Origin: an uncultured Vicingus sp.
GTDB lineage: Bacteria; Bacteroidota; Bacteroidia; Flavobacteriales_E; Vicingaceae
Reading direction: 5' to 3'
Assembly: GCA_964422135.1 (NCBI GenBank)
Contig: CAYRAD010000003.1
Location: 1 to 15,872 of the forward strand
Length of the DNA: 15,872 bases
The position numbers and the translations under genes are program-made. Numbering within the stretch: the stretch's first letter is position 1; every line of letters begins with the position of its first letter. Under the pieces are notes generated by a model. The model had not been told where the DNA came from. It saw nothing but the letters and a program-made list of their open reading frames with translations, and searched no databases. This document shows, piece after piece, positions 1,418-15,872 of this stretch.

Positions 1418-3271
1418 ATGAATAAGAATAAGATAAAAAAAGTCGGAGTTGTAGGAATTGGACCCGTAGGAATGATAATAGCCACTCTGTTAAAGGATGC
1501 TGGTTGTGAAGTTGCCATTTCTGATATAGATAAAAATAAATTAGATCTTATTGAAAAAGAAGGGGCTAAGCTGGAAGGAGGATTTAATAAAGAGGTGAAG
1601 TTTGATCATGTTTATAACACTGTTGAAGAGCTAGAAACACTTGACTTAGATTTGATTATCCTGGCTCTTAAAGCTAATTATTTAGGAGGAGTTGTTGAGA
1701 AAGTAGCCTCTTTTAAAAACAGTAATTTCCCTGTAGTTTGTGCTATGAATGGTATTGATACTGAAAATATTGCTTCCGACATTATTGGAGAATCAAGAAC
1801 CCTACGAATGGTTATCAATTTTGCTGGTAATTTATTTGCTCCGAATATAACCAAAGTAACATTTGTTACACCTCCAACTTACCTTGCATCTATTGATGAT
1901 GCAATTACTGAAACAGCTGAACATTTAGCCGAATGGTTTAAAAAAGCTGATTTGGAAGTTAAGGTGATTAATTCATTTGACTTGTTAGGAAAAATTTGGG
2001 AGAAAACTATTCTTAATGCAGCATTAAGTCCATTGTGTGGTGTAGGAAAACTAACAATGGCAGAGGCAATGAATGACCCTGATACAGTTGAATTAATAGA
2101 GCAAATCATTAATGAAGGGGTTGAAGTTGCTGAAAAAGAAAAAATCAGGTTTCCTGATACCTTTGTTAGAAGTTGCATGAAATACCTTAAAAAAGGTGGT
2201 GATCATTTTCCTTCTCTTGCCGGAGATTTAATTAACAACCGACCAACAGAAATTGATTATTTTAATGGTAAAATAGTTGAGTATGGTAAAAAACATTACG
2301 TCAGAACGTCCTTAAATCTTGCGTTTACAAACATGGTAAAAGCCATGACCAACAAAAATATTATTTCAAGAGTTCCTGGCGTTGCTGGTGATGTAACCAA
2401 AAAGATTTTAAATAAAGGAATGATTGATAATACGATTCAAGCATCTTCATTTAAAAATGTAAACTGTTACTTAGGAATAGATTTAGGCTCTGCTTACTAT
2501 AAGTTTACAGTTATTGATGATAATGGGAATGCTGTTTTCCATTATTTATTACCAACATTAACAGGAGACAAGCAATCGAAGAAAAATGTGATGAACGCTA
2601 TTTCCTCTAGTTTTAATATTAAATATAGTTGTGCTACAGGTTATGGAAGAAAACATTTTGTTGAAGCTGATATAATAAAAACTGAAATTAGTTGTGCAAC
2701 TACTGGGGTATCTTTTTTACACCCTGGAGAAAAAAATATTCTCGACATAGGTGGTGAAGACATTAAAGTAATAAAGTGCAGTGAAGAAAATGTTGTTGCT
2801 AACTTTTATATGAATGATAAATGTGCTGCTGGTACTGGTTCGTTCTTATCAGAAATAGCAGAACAAACCAATATTAATATTGCTAACATGAGTAGTTTGG
2901 CTTCTCTCTCTACATTTGATAAAGAGTTAAACAGCTTCTGTACTGTTTTTGCTAAAACAGAAATAATGAATTGGATTTTCGATGGTATGTCACCACAAGA
3001 TATTTCTAGAGGTATTTATATTTCTATTGCCAATAAAGTTGCCAAAATGAGAATAGAACCTAATCTTCCTACTTTCATGATAGGAGGAGTAATTGGCCAT
3101 CATCCTTATTTAAAAACAATTTTAACCGAAAAATTTAATAAGGACATCGAAATTGTGGAACATCCTCAATTTGTGGTTTCACACGGAGCTGCTTTAATCG
3201 CTAAGCAACATTACGAAAAAAACCCCGATGTTGATTCTAAAGCTCAACCACTTGAGTCTTTAAATTCTTAA
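1418..3271 (+). CDS. fusion protein: N-terminal ketopantoate reductase (ApbA/PanE)-like NAD(P)H 2-oxoacid reductase domain plus C-terminal BcrAD/BadFG-type ATPase (2-hydroxyacyl-CoA dehydratase activator, HgdC/HadI-like)
   Basis: N-terminal part (about nt 1418-2360): Rossmann motif KVGVVGIGPVGMIIA, then GKIWEKTILNAALSPL and RPTEIDYFNGKIV, all typical of ApbA/PanE. C-terminal part (about nt 2465-3271): YLGIDLGSAYYKF, ATGYGR, LDIGGEDIKVI, NDKCAAGTGSFL and SFCTVFAKTE. These align by eye almost motif-for-motif with Acidaminococcus HgdC, including both cluster-ligand Cys. Confidence 0.85.
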   Translation: MNKNKIKKVGVVGIGPVGMIIATLLKDAGCEVAISDIDKNKLDLIEKEGAKLEGGFNKEVKFDHVYNTVEELETLDLDLIILALKANYLGGVVEKVASFKNSNFPVVCAMNGIDTENIASDIIGESRTLRMVINFAGNLFAPNITKVTFVTPPTYLASIDDAITETAEHLAEWFKKADLEVKVINSFDLLGKIWEKTILNAALSPLCGVGKLTMAEAMNDPDTVELIEQIINEGVEVAEKEKIRFPDTFVRSCMKYLKKGGDHFPSLAGDLINNRPTEIDYFNGKIVEYGKKHYVRTSLNLAFTNMVKAMTNKNIISRVPGVAGDVTKKILNKGMIDNTIQASSFKNVNCYLGIDLGSAYYKFTVIDDNGNAVFHYLLPTLTGDKQSKKNVMNAISSSFNIKYSCATGYGRKHFVEADIIKTEISCATTGVSFLHPGEKNILDIGGEDIKVIKCSEENVVANFYMNDKCAAGTGSFLSEIAEQTNINIANMSSLASLSTFDKELNSFCTVFAKTEIMNWIFDGMSPQDISRGIYISIANKVAKMRIEPNLPTFMIGGVIGHHPYLKTILTEKFNKDIEIVEHPQFVVSHGAALIAKQHYEKNPDVDSKAQPLESLNS

Positions 3272-3460: not shown

Positions 3461-5479
3461 ATGGCTTATCAGTATAAAAATTTAAACTTCAGCAAACTAT
3501 CAGTTATTGGCGCTGGTCAAATTGGTCCAGACATCTGTTTACACTTTGCAAAAGTGTTTTGGAAAAACAATGTTGAATTTGTAATTATCGATATTTCTTC
3601 TGAGGCTTTGGCAAAAGCGAAAGCAAAAATCGAAAAGAAAATTAGTAAAGGAGTTGAAACAGGAGCTTTTAAACCTGAAATGGCTGAAACAATGAAAAAT
3701 TCCATTGCTTATTCGTCAGATTATGAATTAGTAAGAGGATCAGGTATTGTTTTGGAAGCTGCTACTGAAGATGGTAGAATTAAAGACATTATATTTAAAC
3801 AAGTGGAAGCATTAACAGATGATTCTTGTTTGTTCTTGTCTAATTCTTCTCACATGAAACCAGAGGTTATCTTCAGAAATATAGCCAATAAAAAAAGATG
3901 TTTGGTCACTCATTATTTCTTTCCTGCAGATAGAAATCCTATTGTTGAGGTAGTTCCAGGTGAGGCGACTGACCGTCATATTACAGCAGATTTACTAGGT
4001 TTTTACGAAGCAATCGGAAAAGTCCCTATTGAAGTACAAAGCTCTTACGGTTATGCCATTGACCCCATATTTGAAGGATTGTGTGAATTAGCGATTTTAT
4101 GCTTAGAGAAAGGGTATGGTTCTATTAAGGAAATAGACAAAATGGCTCAAAAAACATTACATCAGGGAGTTGGACCGTTTACAGCATTAAACCTAACCGG
4201 TGGTAATCCGATTACCAATCATGGATTGGAAGAAATGCGTGAAACACATATTCCTTGGTTCAGGTCTCCCAAAGCCTTGCAGGAAGCAACAGCTAACGGA
4301 ACCATGTGGGATACTGCTAAAAGAGGAGAAGAAGTAACGGTTGACCCTGCGAAAGCAGAAGTATTGAGGAAACAATTCTTAGGTGGATATTTCGCCTTGG
4401 TTTGTTACATCATCGATTTGGGGATTACCAATGTAAATGATTTGGATATGGCTGCAGAAATTGCATTGGTAATAGCCGCTCCATTTACTTTGATGAACAA
4501 AATTGGAATTGACGAATCACATGCGTTGGTCGCAGCATGGTGTGAAGAACATACCGAATTCCCTTTCCCAAAATCATTGGATAAGGCAAAAGCAGCTGGT
4601 GGCTGGACAATTTCAAGAATTGTGGCAAAAAAAAATGATAACATCGCAGTACTGACCATCAGAAGACCAAAAGTGTTGAATGCCTTGAATCTTGCAGTTT
4701 TAAAAGAATTAAAAATTGAAATTGAAAAAGCCGAAAATGACGCAAGTGTTGATGGAATTGTAATTACAGGTTTTGGAACAAAAGCTTTCGTCTCTGGTGC
4801 TGATATCAATATGTTGGCTGCTTTAAAAACTCCCGAAGAAGGATATAACAATTCTCATACTTTCCAACAATTGATTAATACCATTGAAGATTGTAAAAAG
4901 CCAACGGTTTGTGCATTAAATGGTTTTGCTTTTGGTGGCGGAAACGAATTGGCAATTACTTGTACAGCAAGAGTTGCCAAAAAAGGATTGCCTGTTGTAG
5001 CTTGTCAACCTGAAGTGAATTTAGGGTTTATTCCAGGCTCAGGAGGAACACAACGTTTACCACGATTAGTCGGGGTTGATGTTGCTGCAGAAATCCTTCG
5101 TACTGCACGACCAGTATCTGGAAAAGAAGCCTTAGAAATAGGATTAATAGATAAAGAAATAGAAGGAGATTTAGTGGAAGGAGCAGTAGGTTTTGCAAAA
5201 AAACTAGTAAAAGGAGAAGTTCAGCCTCGTGATTTTATGAAGGGAGGTATCAAAGAAGATTTAGCTCCTAAGGAAATCAACATTGGTCATTTGAGTAAAA
5301 AAATTGATGACATTATGAATAAGGCAATTTATGATGGAATTAAATTACCATTAAACGAAGCCTTAGAATTAGAATCAAAACTTTTTGGAGAATGCATCTT
5401 AACTGAAGACATGAAAATAGGTTTGGATAATTTCATGACCAACGGACCAAGAGCTAAAGCAGAATTTAAGCACTCTTAA
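3461..5479 (+). CDS. bifunctional 3-hydroxyacyl-CoA dehydrogenase (N-terminal) / enoyl-CoA hydratase (C-terminal)
   Basis: N-terminal NAD motif VIGAGQIGPDI, then SNSSHM and THYFFPADRNPIVEVVPG (HAD signature region). The C-terminal crotonase fold starts near nt 4610: AVLTIRRPKVLNALN, FVSGADI, ALNGFAFGGGNELA and QPEVNLGFIPGSGGTQRLPRLVG, with both catalytic Glu positions present. Confidence 0.9.
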   Translation: MAYQYKNLNFSKLSVIGAGQIGPDICLHFAKVFWKNNVEFVIIDISSEALAKAKAKIEKKISKGVETGAFKPEMAETMKNSIAYSSDYELVRGSGIVLEAATEDGRIKDIIFKQVEALTDDSCLFLSNSSHMKPEVIFRNIANKKRCLVTHYFFPADRNPIVEVVPGEATDRHITADLLGFYEAIGKVPIEVQSSYGYAIDPIFEGLCELAILCLEKGYGSIKEIDKMAQKTLHQGVGPFTALNLTGGNPITNHGLEEMRETHIPWFRSPKALQEATANGTMWDTAKRGEEVTVDPAKAEVLRKQFLGGYFALVCYIIDLGITNVNDLDMAAEIALVIAAPFTLMNKIGIDESHALVAAWCEEHTEFPFPKSLDKAKAAGGWTISRIVAKKNDNIAVLTIRRPKVLNALNLAVLKELKIEIEKAENDASVDGIVITGFGTKAFVSGADINMLAALKTPEEGYNNSHTFQQLINTIEDCKKPTVCALNGFAFGGGNELAITCTARVAKKGLPVVACQPEVNLGFIPGSGGTQRLPRLVGVDVAAEILRTARPVSGKEALEIGLIDKEIEGDLVEGAVGFAKKLVKGEVQPRDFMKGGIKEDLAPKEINIGHLSKKIDDIMNKAIYDGIKLPLNEALELESKLFGECILTEDMKIGLDNFMTNGPRAKAEFKHS

Positions 5480-7857: not shown

Positions 7858-8964
7858 ATGGGAAAAGAAATTAAAAATACATTTATTGACGGTTCGATGC
7901 TGATTATTGAAGCATTGGTGAGGTCTGGAGCAGATATTTTTATCGGCTACCCAATAACTCCCTCTAATAGATTTTACTCTTACGGACAGAAAAGATTTTC
8001 ATCTTTTTATCCAGCACCCGATGAAATATCGGTATTGCAATGGATGTCAGGAGCTTCGGCTGCAGGAAAAATACCCGTTACAGCAACTGCATTTCCAGGG
8101 CTGGCTTTAATGGTAGAATCGTTGAACATGGCTTATGTAATGGAATTGCCAATGGTGTTGGTAATTACTCAACGTTTAGGACCAAGCACAGGATCGGCAA
8201 CTATTGGAGCACAAGGAGATTTAGGAATAGTTAACGGAATTATTTCAGGTTTTCCTGTTCCTACTTTTTGTCCAGCTAGCTTTGAGGATTGCTGGTCACT
8301 TTCTCAAAAAGCAATGGAAACAGCTGTTCAATTAAGGACTCCTGTTATTTTATTGACTTCTAAAGAAATGGTGATGACAAGCAAGAGTTTTGACATCTCT
8401 AAATTAGAAGAGATTAAACCTGTAAACAGAGAGAAACCTAAAATTACTGGAGAATATAAATCATATCAAGCTGGAGCAGATTTGATAGCTCCATTTTTAG
8501 ATGTGAATAACAATGAGCATCAGGTTAGAATAAATGCTTCTATGCATAATGAAGAAGGTAGAATTGTGAAAAACGTAGAATCACTAAACATTACTAAAAG
8601 ATTAGCTGAAAAAATTAATACAAAAGCAACGGGGCTTGCTTGTTTTGATTATAAAAAAGAAGAAGGAGCATCTAAATTGATTATTTCTTATGGAATTTCG
8701 GCTTTAGCTGCAATTGATGCAGTTGAAGAAATACAAGCCAAAAATCAAAAAGTTTCTTTATTAATTGTTAAAACGCTAATTCCATTGTCAAATGAAATTT
8801 ACGATATCATTGATTCATACGATGATGTTTTATTTGTAGAAGAAAATTTAAATGGACAATTGAAAGAAATAATTTTCGGGAAACGAAATAACAAAAAAGT
8901 AAAAAGTATAAATAAATCTGGAAGCATGATTGCTCCTTCAGAAATTGTAAACGAATTCGCTTAG
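7858..8964 (+). CDS. 2-oxoacid:ferredoxin oxidoreductase alpha subunit (KorA/PorA-like)
   Basis: GYPITPSN, DEISVLQWMSGASAAGKIPVTATAFPGLALMVESL and QRLGPSTGSATIGAQGDL match the pyruvate/2-oxoglutarate:ferredoxin oxidoreductase alpha core by eye. The gene lies 4 nt upstream of the beta gene. Confidence 0.85.
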   Translation: MGKEIKNTFIDGSMLIIEALVRSGADIFIGYPITPSNRFYSYGQKRFSSFYPAPDEISVLQWMSGASAAGKIPVTATAFPGLALMVESLNMAYVMELPMVLVITQRLGPSTGSATIGAQGDLGIVNGIISGFPVPTFCPASFEDCWSLSQKAMETAVQLRTPVILLTSKEMVMTSKSFDISKLEEIKPVNREKPKITGEYKSYQAGADLIAPFLDVNNNEHQVRINASMHNEEGRIVKNVESLNITKRLAEKINTKATGLACFDYKKEEGASKLIISYGISALAAIDAVEEIQAKNQKVSLLIVKTLIPLSNEIYDIIDSYDDVLFVEENLNGQLKEIIFGKRNNKKVKSINKSGSMIAPSEIVNEFA

Positions 8965-8968
8965 TAAG

Positions 8969-10213
8969 ATGAAAAATGAAATGTTATCAGGAGTAAAAGC
9001 ACCATTTTGTCCGGGCTGCGGGCATGCTCCTTCGGTAAAATATTTATCAAAAGCTTTAACTGAATGTGGATATAATCCATTGGATGTGGTGATGGTAAGT
9101 GATATTGGATGTAATGGATTAATAGATCCATTGTTCAATACACATACTATTCATGGATTGCATGGAAGATCCCCAGCTTTAGCTTTGGGAGTAGTTTTAG
9201 GATTGGAAAATCCAAACAAAAAAGTGGTGACCATGCAAGGAGATGGTGGAGCAACTATAGGATTACAACATCTAATGGAAGCATCAAGAAGAAACGTTGA
9301 TATGACATTGATTGTGATGAACAATTTGATTTATGGAATGACTGGTGGTCAGGTAAGTGGATTGACAACCAACGAGTTTAAAGAAGAAAAACACATTCAG
9401 GACGATGCACCTCCTTTCGATGTATGCCAGTTAGCTCATCAAGCTGGTGCGGCTTATGTTGCTAGAGTAAATAATCCAAAAAATATTACTGAAAAATTGG
9501 TGGAAGCATTTAAAACACCAGGATTTTCGTTAGTAGAAATTTCTAGTTTGTGTCAGCCTTATGGGGCAAAAAAAATAGAGCAATTAACTGGATGGATTAA
9601 AGATGAGGTGTTGCTGAATAATAATTATCCTGTTGGTAAAAATAAAGTGAAAGAAACAGTTTCATTAATAAACGACAAACAGGTTCTTGAAACAAAATAT
9701 CAATCAGCTATAGAAGGCACAGTTGGAATTATTATAGCAGGTTCTGCTGGTGGTGGTGTTCAGTCGGCAGCCAAACTATTGGCAGAAGCAGCTATCATGT
9801 CGGGACTGTCTGCAACAATGAAAGGAGAATATCCTATAACTGTTGGAACAGGGTTTTCGTTAGGAGAAGTTATTTTATCTAAAAATGAGATCAATTACAC
9901 AGGCTTAGAAAAACCAGATGTTTCAATCGTTGTTTCAGATAATGGACTTTTAAAAGTTCAGGGAAAAGGAATTGAACTTCCTAATCTGTATGTAGATGCT
10001 AAAGTTTCCATTCCTGAAAATTTAACAGCTAAAGTTTTTGATTTTGATAAAATGGCTGGGAAAAAAGGTTCTGCTTTATGTGCAATAGCACTTTGGATTG
10101 AAGAATCAGGATTGTTGGACATCAATGCATTAAAAGAAGTTGCCGCAAAACATAAATATGGTGAAAAATTATTAAAAATAATTGACTCATCTAAAGAATT
10201 ACAGGTAGTGTGA
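8969..10213 (+). CDS. 2-oxoacid:ferredoxin oxidoreductase beta (TPP-binding) subunit fused to a gamma-type domain
   Basis: N-terminal FCPGCGH and the TPP motif GDGGATIGLQHLMEASRRNVDMTLIVMNNLIYGMTGGQ indicate a beta subunit. The C-terminal about 170 aa (IIIAGSAGGGVQSAAKLLAEAAIMSGL...YPITVGTGFS...KPDVSIV) looks like the gamma (POR) domain. Confidence 0.85.
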   Translation: MKNEMLSGVKAPFCPGCGHAPSVKYLSKALTECGYNPLDVVMVSDIGCNGLIDPLFNTHTIHGLHGRSPALALGVVLGLENPNKKVVTMQGDGGATIGLQHLMEASRRNVDMTLIVMNNLIYGMTGGQVSGLTTNEFKEEKHIQDDAPPFDVCQLAHQAGAAYVARVNNPKNITEKLVEAFKTPGFSLVEISSLCQPYGAKKIEQLTGWIKDEVLLNNNYPVGKNKVKETVSLINDKQVLETKYQSAIEGTVGIIIAGSAGGGVQSAAKLLAEAAIMSGLSATMKGEYPITVGTGFSLGEVILSKNEINYTGLEKPDVSIVVSDNGLLKVQGKGIELPNLYVDAKVSIPENLTAKVFDFDKMAGKKGSALCAIALWIEESGLLDINALKEVAAKHKYGEKLLKIIDSSKELQVV

Positions 10214-12621: not shown

Positions 12622-12634
12622 ACGAATTACGAAT
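12607..12634 (+). repeat. tandem ACGAATTACGAAT x2 spanning the RidA stop and the GxxExxY start
   Basis: Units are at 12607-12619 and 12622-12634. The first encodes the RidA C-terminus and the T of its stop codon. The second ends in the first two bases (AT) of the ATG start at 12633-12635. Confidence 0.8.
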
Positions 12635-13052
12635 GACAGGATATACAGTAAAAAATAAAGATTTATTATTTCCAAAACTTTCATATAAGATTGTAGGAAT
12701 CTTATTTGATGTTTATAATACATTGGGTTATGGGTATTTGGAAAAATATTATCAAAAGGCTATTGCTGCTCAGCTTAAGAAAGAAAAAATAAAATTTACT
12801 GAACAAGAAAAGGTTGAGATTGTTATTGCAAATGAGGTTATAGCAAAAGGATATACTGATTTTATTATTGAGGATAAAATTATTTTGGAAATTAAAAAAG
12901 GCAATTCTTTTAGAAAAAACAATATTGATCAATTACACAGTTATTTAAAAATGAAAAAAATGGAATTAGGAATTCTTGCAAATTTCACATCAAAAGGCTT
13001 GTTGTATAAGCGGATAGTTAATATTAGTAATTCTAAAATTCGTAATACGTAG
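12633..13052 (+). CDS. GxxExxY-motif protein, PD-(D/E)XK nuclease-fold superfamily
   Basis: The eponymous motif is present as GYLEKYY within FDVYNTLGYGYLEKYYQKA. A D...ExK motif follows in TDFIIEDKIILEIKKG. Size is 139 aa. The gene is flanked by ACGAATTACGAAT-type repeats. Confidence 0.8.
   Translation: MTGYTVKNKDLLFPKLSYKIVGILFDVYNTLGYGYLEKYYQKAIAAQLKKEKIKFTEQEKVEIVIANEVIAKGYTDFIIEDKIILEIKKGNSFRKNNIDQLHSYLKMKKMELGILANFTSKGLLYKRIVNISNSKIRNT
13027..13046 (-). repeat. inverted partner of the ACGAATTACGAAT repeat at the 3' end of the GxxExxY gene
   Basis: GTAATTC (13027-13033) and ATTCGTAAT (13038-13046) are reverse complements of GAATTAC and ATTACGAAT in the upstream tandem units. Confidence 0.55.
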
Positions 13053-13056
13053 TACT

Positions 13057-14184
13057 ATGAATTTCGAACTAAACGACATACAAAAATCCGTACAACAAAC
13101 TTTTATAGATTTTGTTGATAAGAGGGTGATGCCTCAGGCAGCAGCAATTGATGAAAATGCTGAATTCCCTATGGAACTTTTTAAGGAAGTTGGAGAATTA
13201 GGGTTTTTTGGCATGCGTTATCCTGAAGATGCTGGTGGTACCAATATGGATATTCTTTCATACTGTTTAGCAGTGATAGAACTTTCAAGGGGCTCGATGT
13301 CGCTTGCTGCAGCTTGCACAATGCAATCACTAATGGCAACTTATTTCTTATATCGATTTGGTGATAAGGAAGTAAAAGGTCATTTTGATGCTGCCATGAA
13401 AGGGGAGGAAATAGGTGCTATCTGCATGACTGAACCCAATGCCGGAAGTGATTTGTTTGCTATCAAAACAAAAGCATTGGTGAAAGAAGATTACTTTTTG
13501 TTGAGTGGTCAAAAAACATGGGTTACATCTGCACCAGTTGCCAACTTTTTTACTGTCTTGGCAAAAACAGATAACCACGATAAATTATCCATCTTTTTTG
13601 TTCCATCTAATTTGGAAGGGGTAACTGTCGGAAAGAAAATTGACAAATTAGGGGCTTGTGGTTCCGTAACCAGTGAGGTTGCTTTTGACAATGTAAAACT
13701 TCCAAAAAACTACTTATTAGGTGAGATTGGTGGGGGAACAAAATGTTTAATGGAGATATTGGCAGAGATTAGAATTATGACTGCTGCACTATCTATTGGT
13801 GTTGCAACAGCTGCTTTTGAAGATGCATTACAATATGCCAAAGAAAGAGAACAATTTGGAAAGCCTATTGGAAAATTTCAAGCAGTAAAAATGAAGTTTG
13901 CAGAAATGGAAGTTCAACTACAAACAGCTAAACATTATGTGTTTTACGCAGCTTATTTAAGCGACAACAATTTACCTCGACATAAAGAATCAATGATTGC
14001 CAAATTGTATGCATCAGAATGTGCCAACTCTATTTGCGACCAAGCTTCAAGAGTTTTAGCATCTTATGGTTATGCAACAGAATACTCGCTGCAACGCTAT
14101 TTACGTGATGCTCGATTTACATTGATTGGTGGAGGTACATCAGAAATTTTGAAAATAAATATAGGTAGAGAGTTGGGATTGTAG
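13057..14184 (+). CDS. FAD-dependent acyl-CoA dehydrogenase
   Basis: Typical ACAD layout: GFFGMRYPE, CMTEPNAGSDL, KTWVTSA, QYAKEREQFGKPIG. The C-terminal motif is IGGGTSEI, which resembles isovaleryl-CoA dehydrogenase IGAGTSE rather than the YEGTS of MCAD/SCAD. Confidence 0.9.
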   Translation: MNFELNDIQKSVQQTFIDFVDKRVMPQAAAIDENAEFPMELFKEVGELGFFGMRYPEDAGGTNMDILSYCLAVIELSRGSMSLAAACTMQSLMATYFLYRFGDKEVKGHFDAAMKGEEIGAICMTEPNAGSDLFAIKTKALVKEDYFLLSGQKTWVTSAPVANFFTVLAKTDNHDKLSIFFVPSNLEGVTVGKKIDKLGACGSVTSEVAFDNVKLPKNYLLGEIGGGTKCLMEILAEIRIMTAALSIGVATAAFEDALQYAKEREQFGKPIGKFQAVKMKFAEMEVQLQTAKHYVFYAAYLSDNNLPRHKESMIAKLYASECANSICDQASRVLASYGYATEYSLQRYLRDARFTLIGGGTSEILKINIGRELGL

Positions 14185-14286: not shown

Positions 14287-15666
14287 ATGAGTTATATAAA
14301 AGAATACAGTATTGCATTACCTGAGTTTAGAATCTCAAATAAAACCCTACACCCCAGGTTAGGAAGAAAGGGTCAACATGCTGTTTGTTATACAGATGAA
14401 GATATTGTTACACTAGCATATCAAGCCGCATCCAATTTGAAACATGAAACTTTAAACTTGAAAATTGATGGAGTCATTTTCGCAACAACAACTCCAGTTT
14501 TTAAAAGCAGGTATCATGCTTCTTATGTTGCAGATATATTGGGTTTAAAACAAGGAATCTTAGCAATGGATTTAGGAACAAGTGTTAGAGCTGGTTCTGA
14601 TGCACTATTGATGGCTGATAAATTGATAAAGAGTGGTGAATACAAAAATATTTTGGTTATTGCTGCTGAGGTTTACTATCCTGAAATAGGAAAAGAAACT
14701 CGAGCAGCTTTTGGTCACGCTGGGGTTGCAATGCTTATTGCTGCTGATGAAGGAATTGCTGAAATAACGAATACTAAATCATACTCATCAGCTTTAGCAG
14801 AAGAGTTTAATTACAAAGGAGAAGCCGTTCAGTACGATGCTCGTTTTGCTAGAACAGAAGGATTTAAAAAGAACCTCGATTTAGCATTGAAATTAAGTAA
14901 CATCGATGCTGAGAAAGTTAACCAAGTGATACTTCATTCTCCTTATGCTAAAATAGCTTTCGGACAATTAAAGAAAGCTGGGTTTGATTTGGAAAAACAG
15001 TTAATGAAAGATACTGTTGCCAATGAAGTTGGAAATACAGGAGCTTGTCATGGATTACTTTTATTAATAAATGCTATTGAAAATGGTCAAGGAAACGTTG
15101 TTTTATTTGATTATTTAAATGGAACGAATGTAATCGAAATTAATAGTTGTCACCCTGAACTTGTCGAAGGACAATCATTTAATCATCAATTTACAGACAT
15201 TGAAACCTATCAAGATTATCTCACCTTAAGAAAACAAGGAAAGTTTACAGGTCGAGGATATGAATCTATTGATATGTTCTCTTCTGAAATGATTAGTGAA
15301 AGAGAAAAAGAGGGCTTGATGTATTTAAAAGGTTACGAATGTGCTAAATGTGGAACAGTATATTACATGAGAGCAGCAAGATGTAATGCATGTCATCATA
15401 CTGAATTCAAACAAAAACAACTAGGTAAAAAAGGGACAGTCTATACTGTAACCAGCGAACATTATTTCCCCAATTCATTTGCACCAACAAATATGGTAAT
15501 CATTGATTTAGATGGAGGAGGAAGAGTAACTGTTCAACAAACAGATGACATGTCCCCTTCTGAAGCAAATACAATTAACATTGGAGATAAAGTGGAATTG
15601 GTATTAAGAAAAATGATGGAGAATGATAAGAAGCCGAACTACTTTTGGAAGTGCATAAAAGAATAG
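14287..15666 (+). CDS. fusion: HMG-CoA synthase-like thiolase-fold domain plus C-terminal DUF35-type zinc-ribbon/OB-fold domain
   Basis: The first 320 aa or so align by eye with HMG-CoA synthases (FATTTPVF..ILGL, GHAGVAMLIA, LHSPYAKIA, VGNTGA). The C-terminal about 120 aa carry CAKC...CNAC (zinc ribbon) followed by an OB-like segment GTVYTVT...IIDLDGGGRV, as in DUF35 proteins. Confidence 0.8.
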   Translation: MSYIKEYSIALPEFRISNKTLHPRLGRKGQHAVCYTDEDIVTLAYQAASNLKHETLNLKIDGVIFATTTPVFKSRYHASYVADILGLKQGILAMDLGTSVRAGSDALLMADKLIKSGEYKNILVIAAEVYYPEIGKETRAAFGHAGVAMLIAADEGIAEITNTKSYSSALAEEFNYKGEAVQYDARFARTEGFKKNLDLALKLSNIDAEKVNQVILHSPYAKIAFGQLKKAGFDLEKQLMKDTVANEVGNTGACHGLLLLINAIENGQGNVVLFDYLNGTNVIEINSCHPELVEGQSFNHQFTDIETYQDYLTLRKQGKFTGRGYESIDMFSSEMISEREKEGLMYLKGYECAKCGTVYYMRAARCNACHHTEFKQKQLGKKGTVYTVTSEHYFPNSFAPTNMVIIDLDGGGRVTVQQTDDMSPSEANTINIGDKVELVLRKMMENDKKPNYFWKCIKE

Positions 15667-15783
15667 AACGTAGATAACGCAGATGGTTATGATTAATTAT
15701 GATAAAATAAAGAAAGCTAAAGAATTGGATGTTAGCAAAATCAAATCATTTTCTATCATAAAAAATCAGTGTCATCAGCGTTC
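15666..15783 (+). repeat. intergenic imperfect-palindrome element, copy 4 (118 nt, expanded centre, no nested insert)
   Basis: Sequence: GAACGTAGATAACGCAGATGGTTATGAT-TAA-TTATGAT...ATCATTTTCTATCATAAAAAATCAGTGTCATCAGCGTTC. The inner TTATGAT/ATCAT motif is duplicated on both arms. The first base is the G of the TAG stop at 15664-15666, and the element ends 26 nt before the ATG at 15810. Confidence 0.85.
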
Positions 15784-15809
15784 CATTAATTGGTAGATAA
15801 ATTATAAAT

Positions 15810-15872
15810 ATGAAACGAAACATAGCAATAATTGGTCTTGGTGTTACCAAGTTTGGAGAACTTTTTAATCAA
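15810..15872 (+). CDS. thiolase (SCP-x / archaeal-type acetyl-CoA C-acyltransferase-like), 3'-truncated by the window edge
   Basis: Not in the ORF track because it runs off the edge. The ATG at 15810 gives MKRNIAIIGLGVTKFGELFNQ, a typical N-terminus of SCP-x-type thiolases. Genes for these usually neighbour DUF35 and HMGCS-like genes. Confidence 0.6.
   Translation, partial: MKRNIAIIGLGVTKFGELFNQ

Follow-up and report, generated by a model that had tools for sequence, protein, structure and literature searches.

A fused HMG-CoA-synthase-like/DUF35 protein beside a thiolase in a catabolic operon of an uncultured Vicingus

We analysed the first 15,872 bases (the window) of a 24.6-kb contig from an uncultured Vicingus sp. 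of the Bacteroidota (GenBank assembly GCA_964422135.1, contig CAYRAD010000003.1, forward strand). The source is a low-GC metagenome-assembled genome (MAG), 81% complete, whose close relatives are Flavobacteriales and other Bacteroidota MAGs. The end of the window holds a gene in which a domain resembling 3-hydroxy-3-methylglutaryl-CoA (HMG-CoA) synthase (HMGCS) is fused to a DUF35 module, followed by the start of a thiolase gene. These features are, in window positions:

14287..15666, + strand: open reading frame (ORF) of the fusion, 459 amino acids
14287..15186, + strand: HMGCS/KAS-III-fold domain, about residues 1–300, from Pfam, NCBIfam, PDB profile alignments (PhlA, MucA, 6ESQ_I, FabH), AlphaFold2 with Foldseek, and family conservation
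15187..15306, + strand: linker, about residues 301–340, running into a stretch aligned to the DUF35 N-terminal tail, from invariant residues and the PhlB alignment
15307..15666, + strand: DUF35 module, a Cys4 zinc ribbon plus OB fold, with the stop codon, from Pfam and PDB matches to BbsA 7PXP_A, 6ESQ_E and PhlB
15667..15809, no strand: spacer of 143 nt between fusion and thiolase; most related loci have ~20 nt or fewer here
15810..15872, + strand: first 21 codons of an SCP2/archaeal-type thiolase that continues past the window end, about 393 amino acids in all

The fusion is probably a non-catalytic partner of the downstream thiolase, built from a dead HMGCS-like domain and a DUF35 docking element. 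The evidence for this reading comes from the catalytic positions of the synthase-like domain, the coupling of the gene to an intact thiolase, the pattern of selection and the precedent of related complexes.

Architecture of the fusion and its partner thiolase

An earlier note, made by eye on the same DNA, had described an HMGCS-like domain joined to DUF35 with a thiolase starting at 15810, and this architecture was borne out by Pfam, NCBIfam, PDB profiles and a fold search. Pfam places ACP_syn_III at residues 95–165, zf-ChsH2 at 347–371 and OB_ChsH2_C at 377–440; the Pfam HMGCS models PF01154 and PF08540 gave no match to the fusion at E<0.01. The 'HMGCS-like' label comes instead from NCBIfam, PDB profile matches and the fold search. 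The best NCBIfam match is the archaeal HMGCS model PRK04262 at 92.7 bits, against a cut-off of 244, and the other HMGCS models also fall below their cut-offs (TIGR01835, 62.9 versus 360; TIGR00748, 49.6 versus 353). At the C-terminus, the NCBIfam BbsA model matches with 48 bits, against an equivalog cut-off of 250.

A PDB profile search with the fusion returned 9SKH_A first (1.1e-23), Pseudomonas protegens PhlA (5M3K_A) next (9.1e-21) and MucA third. The AlphaFold2 model (pLDDT 88, pTM 0.89) retrieved with Foldseek, as its top PDB matches, the HMGCS chains 6ET9_I and 6ESQ_I, MucA (9VBO/9VBT), the PhlA-like 9SKH and PhlA (5M3K/5MG5). For the isolated DUF35 part, the best PDB match is BbsA (4.5e-10). 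As part of the same reading, the ancestor of the N-terminal domain was likely the HMG-CoA synthase found in the archaeal thiolase/HMGCS/DUF35 complex.

The same fusion occurs in other genomes, as the earlier note had proposed to look for. Our family set comprises 120 full-length Bacteroidota homologues with 49–84% identity, and an exhaustive HMMER search against 1.84 billion representatives of 50%-identity clusters returned 131 clusters at E<=1e-30. Among the top 150 matches, almost every protein is full-length, with ~445–490 residues. A second, superfamily set is an alignment of 140 cluster representatives of the wider fused HMGS/DUF35 group. The gene is patchily distributed. Of 87 genomes from the same order, 11 yielded it, among them 4 of the 23 other members of the genus; a sample of 300 further genomes from across the phylum yielded no copy. 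The zinc-ribbon cysteines C352, C355, C366 and C369 (CAKC...CNAC) are invariant in the family, and all four are kept in at least 139 of the 140 superfamily representatives.

The full thiolase matches PRK06157 at 419 bits, above that model's cut-off, and its motifs are intact: NFCASG (CxS), VHDCF (HDxF) and CGHP (GHx). Its PDB matches are led by 6ESQ_A of the archaeal complex (207 bits, with an identical EVHDCF), followed by BbsB (174 bits) and PhlC (103–113 bits); against the NCBIfam BbsB equivalog it scores 191 bits, with a cut-off of 750. The two genes are closely coupled. The fusion is directly followed by the thiolase in all nine Bacteroidota loci long enough to show both, and on Variovorax and Novosphingobium plasmids fused homologues with ~25% identity overlap the start of an 'acetyl-CoA acetyltransferase' gene. 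These plasmid proteins (L013:6896-8368 and L014:6971-8416) carry Gln at the Cys position (GSQRG) and lie in clusters with genes for short-chain dehydrogenase/reductase, MaoC hydratase, acyl-CoA dehydrogenase (ACAD) and CoA-transferase. The source genome, at 81% completeness, encodes one DUF35 protein and yielded no true HMGCS.

Two observations concern the junction itself. The long spacer between fusion and thiolase recurs in the related locus L003. Just past the window end, a run of 100 N at contig positions 15873–15972 has at its flanks an exact 51-nt duplication from the 5' end of the thiolase, which looks like an unmerged scaffold join. This join makes the thiolase ORF appear as 444 residues with a doubled N-terminus; the contig carries the remainder of the gene in intact form.

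Catalytic positions and selection

We aligned a family profile built from 91 members to 6ESQ_I, the HMGCS of the archaeal complex, whose catalytic tetrad is Glu82, Cys114, His238 and Asn270 (PMC12960953). The equivalent residues of the fusion are T68, V100, H217 and N250. The by-eye alignment of the earlier note, which had replaced Glu by Thr and Cys by Val and retained His and Asn, was therefore right at all four positions, three of which (Cys, His and Asn) are also reproduced by a single-sequence alignment to FabH. An HMG-CoA synthase has Glu, Cys and His plus Asn at these canonical positions; the profile alignment, proposed earlier as a check, places neither the Glu nor the Cys here. The Cys-His-Asn triad of KAS III/FabH and type III polyketide synthases (PKS) is likewise broken by V100, and none of the 120 family members or 140 superfamily representatives has a Cys at this position. 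A FabH or type III PKS with its own triad was ruled out, as there is no Cys.

The losses extend across the family. At the Glu position, the 120 homologues have T, S or A in 117 cases, N in two and L in one, with no E. The Cys position is most commonly A, S, N, T, P or V (110 of 120) and is never C. Neither Glu nor Cys occurs at the catalytic positions in any of the 140 superfamily representatives, 83 of which have Leu in place of Cys. The two remaining positions vary as well: the His position is N in 101 members and H in 19, and the Asn position is N in 72, H in 19, Y in 16 and F in 9. Of the E-C-H-N tetrad, E and C are gone from the fusion, and H and N, present here, are gone in most of the family. 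Because the His and Asn positions drift in this way, H217 and N250 are probably incidental.

A genuine mevalonate-pathway HMG-CoA synthase carrying a fused DUF35 scaffold is thus next to impossible. The fold of the domain and its best NCBIfam match, an archaeal HMGCS, fit such an enzyme. Against this, Glu and Cys are gone, the 92.7-bit score lies far under the cut-off of 244, the gene sits in a catabolic operon, and no HMG-CoA is made by a fused Pseudomonas fluorescens homologue that shares these losses.

Within the HMGS part, conservation of polar residues across the 140 representatives is confined to R15, D37-E38-D39, T42, D95 and R101. In the profile alignments, both active archaeal HMGCS and PhlA share the DED motif, the Thr and D95, and have Lys opposite R101; R15 falls before the part that aligns to PhlA and has no Arg counterpart in 6ESQ_I. 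The sharing of DED, Thr and D95 with an active synthase and with PhlA argues that the conserved set consists of inherited features of the fold and not of a new active site.

Comparison with the two closest loci gave a ratio of nonsynonymous to synonymous substitution (dN/dS) of 0.09–0.10 for the fusion, 0.03–0.04 for the thiolase and 0.03 for the ACAD encoded upstream. A ratio of about 0.1 indicates that the fusion gene is under purifying selection and functional. Its dN is two to three times that of the thiolase and ACAD, with the HMGS part the fastest-evolving segment; in a more distant locus this part is 53% identical, versus 90% for the thiolase. Both in these loci and superfamily-wide, the DUF35 part has changed less than the HMGS part. 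This pattern fits a functional but non-catalytic protein. A decaying pseudogene was excluded by the dN/dS of ~0.1 and by an architecture kept in more than 130 clusters at 50% identity.

Related complexes and the proposed mechanism

The closest relatives of the fusion are PhlA and MucA, of the PhlACB and MucABC complexes, and the PfACAT/HMGS-DUF35 complex of P. fluorescens, named after its acetyl-CoA acetyltransferase (ACAT). PhlA has no Cys and Glu, and PhlC is the sole catalytic subunit of its complex (PMC6392133); the E-C-H-N tetrad is missing from both MucA and PhlA (Liao et al., Nat Commun 2026, PMC12960953). The latter study listed 1,030 bacterial loci with co-located HMGS, ACAT and DUF35, of which 1,001 have no adjacent secondary-metabolism machinery, and characterised the fused P. 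fluorescens complex, which combines a dead HMGS with an intact thiolase (PMC12960953). That complex cleaves acetoacetyl-CoA and makes neither HMG-CoA nor acetoacetyl-CoA, and its activity needs the His of HDxF (PMC12960953).

The design seen in the window, a fused dead HMGS/DUF35 beside a thiolase, is thus already published, and the new part is its catabolic operon context. As here, PfACAT/HMGS-DUF35 places an HMGS-like domain without its catalytic residues and DUF35 on one polypeptide, next to an SCP2/archaeal-type thiolase with Cys, HDxF and GHx, and no PKS or non-ribosomal peptide synthetase (NRPS) lies nearby. The P. fluorescens protein is reported to be without the whole E-C-H-N tetrad, whereas the window protein keeps His and Asn, which are unconserved in its family. 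The fused proteobacterial homologues sampled on plasmids are ~24–26% identical to the window protein. The authors regard the Pf complex as an unrecruited evolutionary intermediate, whereas the window gene evolves under purifying selection within a catabolic operon that is tightly conserved.

PhlACB (5M3K/5MG5), CsATase (9SKH) and MucABC (9VBO/9VBT) follow the same logic, with an HMGS-like subunit devoid of Cys and Glu (PhlA, MucA) and catalysis on a thiolase-like subunit; PhlB is a DUF35 protein that bridges the A2 and C2 dimers. In these complexes the three components are separate polypeptides, whereas A and B are fused in the window protein. Their thiolase subunit lacks HDxF and catalyses a Friedel-Crafts C-acylation in antibiotic biosynthesis. 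The pair described here could in principle be such a C-acyltransferase, with acetyl-CoA as the acyl donor and a small molecule of secondary metabolism as the acceptor; PhlA-type chains are its best PDB sequence matches, with MucA third, and the subunit logic is shared. We consider this very improbable, since the window thiolase keeps the HDxF motif that the acyltransferases have lost and scores higher against 6ESQ_A (207 bits) and BbsB (174 bits) than against PhlC (103–113 bits), the 24.6-kb contig holds no PKS or NRPS gene, and all neighbours are catabolic acyl-CoA enzymes.

The archaeal complex (6ESQ) contains the same three modules. Its HMGCS is the best structural match of the N-terminal domain (Foldseek E 8.9e-21), its DUF35 (6ESQ_E) matches that of the fusion, and its thiolase (6ESQ_A) is the 207-bit match noted above. 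The archaeal synthase is active and pulls condensation towards HMG-CoA, whereas the window fusion has a dead synthase domain and its complex is predicted to run towards thiolysis.

Homology to the archaeal, PhlACB and MucABC complexes suggests how the pair would work: the non-catalytic fusion would form a dimer that clamps a thiolase dimer, with the C-terminal DUF35 (zinc ribbon and OB fold) acting as the docking element. Clamping may keep the thiolase soluble and complete a shared CoA-binding chamber. All chemistry would take place on the thiolase, through the Cys of NFCASG, the His of HDCF and GHP, and would run in the thiolytic direction, as in the fused P. fluorescens complex.

Two segments of the fusion are candidates for the docking surface. 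The stretch FSSEMxxEREK (res. 331–341) is largely invariant, with F331, S333, E334, M335, R339 and K341 fully so, and residues 391–400 are likewise largely invariant. In the isolated model, pLDDT drops below 50 at residues 333–335 and 394–397. In PhlB, the counterparts of the two segments by alignment are the N-terminal tail and the long OB loop, and both elements are buried against PhlA and PhlC in the PhlACB crystal (PMC6392133). The invariant segments provide indirect support for docking onto the thiolase.

The earlier note had offered two options for the synthase-like domain, a non-condensing scaffold or a different chemistry. The scaffold is supported by family-wide losses and the P. fluorescens precedent; a different chemistry is disfavoured by the lack of conservation of His and Asn. 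The further suggestion of a thiolase-plus-scaffold machine acting on a 3-oxoacyl-CoA, and not an HMG-CoA-forming system, gains support from the intact thiolase, the failure to find a true HMGCS in the 81%-complete source genome, and the thiolysis-only precedent (PMC12960953).

Operon context and candidate substrate

The fusion belongs to an operon that is strongly syntenic across Bacteroidota MAGs. Its order is a fusion of 3-hydroxyacyl-CoA dehydrogenase and enoyl-CoA hydratase (HCDH-ECH), hydantoinase A, hydantoinase B, RidA, ACAD, the HMGS/DUF35 fusion and the thiolase, after which it continues with a B12-binding subunit, an acyl-CoA mutase, a family III CoA-transferase and an IorA-GltD fusion. 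The gene most informative about the pathway lies upstream of the fusion:

13057..14184, + strand: ACAD with GGG in place of YEG (IaaF-type), ...RFTLIGGGTSEIL... (LIGGGTSEI)

GGG in place of YEG defines IaaF, a decarboxylating benzylmalonyl-CoA dehydrogenase (PMC8360864), and homologues of the window ACAD with 78–90% identity are named 'benzylmalonyl-CoA dehydrogenase' by JGI. In the iaa pathway, IaaF yields 2-aminocinnamoyl-CoA, which then enters beta-oxidation (PMC8360864). A gene set of the iaa type is present, comprising the GGG ACAD, a B12 mutase, a family III CoA-transferase, hydantoinase-like proteins, an ECH/HCDH fusion and a thiolase, as judged from the motif, gene content and synteny. 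As a whole, the operon looks like one for anaerobic indoleacetate/tryptophan breakdown.

The presence of an ACAD with the IaaF signature suggests that the thiolase cleaves 2-aminobenzoylacetyl-CoA. In the predicted reaction, 3-(2-aminophenyl)-3-oxopropionyl-CoA (2-aminobenzoylacetyl-CoA) plus CoA would give 2-aminobenzoyl-CoA and acetyl-CoA. Judging from the operon, we put the chance that this reaction completes beta-oxidation in an iaa-like anaerobic indoleacetate/tryptophan pathway at a little under even. BbsAB of Geobacter metallireducens (7PXP), in which a DUF35 protein and an SCP2-type thiolase cleave an aromatic 3-oxoacyl-CoA, benzoylsuccinyl-CoA, in an anaerobic pathway, provides an analogous reaction; BbsA has no HMGS-like domain, unlike the window fusion. 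A more specific proposal, which we put forward tentatively and rate slightly lower, is that uncultured Bacteroidota have an anaerobic tryptophan/indoleacetate pathway in which an aryl-beta-ketothiolase, with the fused module as its obligatory partner, releases 2-aminobenzoyl-CoA.

The same pathway bears on the idea that the HMGS-like domain is itself an enzyme with a new chemistry, for instance a KSQ-like decarboxylase acting on (2-aminobenzyl)malonyl-CoA through a His217/Asn250 oxyanion hole or through invariant polar residues. A malonyl-type thioester does occur in the pathway, H217 and N250 are present in this protein, proteobacterial fused homologues have Gln at the Cys position, and H144, H255, Y176, D184 and R186 do not vary in the Bacteroidota family. 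However, decarboxylation is already carried out by IaaF, and the His position is Asn in 101 of 120 members sharing the same operon, while the Asn position may be N, H, Y or F. At the Cys position itself, most family members have A, S, N, T, P or V, and Leu prevails in the superfamily; no novel polar constellation is conserved in the 140 representatives, and the HMGS part is the fastest-evolving segment. We regard such an enzyme as unlikely.

A non-catalytic fusion serving the thiolase remains our preferred explanation, and four points weigh against it or its setting. The case for a fusion–thiolase complex is drawn from homology and synteny. H217 and N250 are kept in the sub-clade of this protein (19 of 120), where residual activity is conceivable. 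The N-terminal domain of the Bacteroidota family has many invariant polar residues, of which the five just listed are examples. Finally, the iaa assignment is built on one signature motif, automated JGI names and gene content.

Further genes of the window surround this pathway. Upstream of the operon, positions 3–908 encode a 2-hydroxyacyl-CoA dehydratase/benzoyl-CoA-reductase-like subunit, cut by the contig start, and positions 1418–3271 a PanE-like reductase fused to a BcrAD/HgdC-type activase; their products could act on the aryl-CoA product. The bifunctional beta-oxidation protein at 3461–5479 has HCDH at its N-terminus and ECH at its C-terminus, an 'inverted' order described for the archaeal Saci_1109 enzyme (bioRxiv 10.1101/2024.07.05.601840). 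Genes for the alpha and beta subunits of a 2-oxoacid:ferredoxin oxidoreductase (7858–10213) stand between hydantoinases A and B only in this genome; the two hydantoinase genes are adjacent in five related loci (L004, L006, L007, L011 and L012), and in locus L010 an oxidoreductase pair of this kind lies directly upstream of the fusion. The operon is also interrupted (12633–13052; L002:3148-4680) by a GxxExxY PD-(D/E)XK gene, a gene for a 330-residue signal-peptide protein and an ORF6N gene. These three are unrelated to CoA metabolism and are missing from most syntenic loci; ORF6N is also found in L003.

The purifying selection on the fusion, its constant coupling to an intact thiolase and its place in conserved catabolic operons (Bacteroidota, Variovorax, Novosphingobium) argue that such modules are functional components of beta-oxidation-like routes that handle bulky acyl-CoAs. 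This defined catabolic context argues against the view of them as unrecruited evolutionary intermediates. A class of thiolase complexes whose first member was characterised in 2026, with its role in bacteria left open, thereby gains a definite physiological setting and a candidate substrate. The finding also carries a warning for annotation, as many of these proteins are labelled 'HMG-CoA synthase' by JGI, a label that would wrongly imply a mevalonate pathway. If the proposal of an obligatory partner for an aryl-beta-ketothiolase is true, the ~1,000 'orphan' bacterial ACAT/HMGS-DUF35 loci would be terminal thiolases of specialised beta-oxidation of bulky substrates, and the gutted HMGS pocket would serve in a CoA- or aryl-binding chamber.

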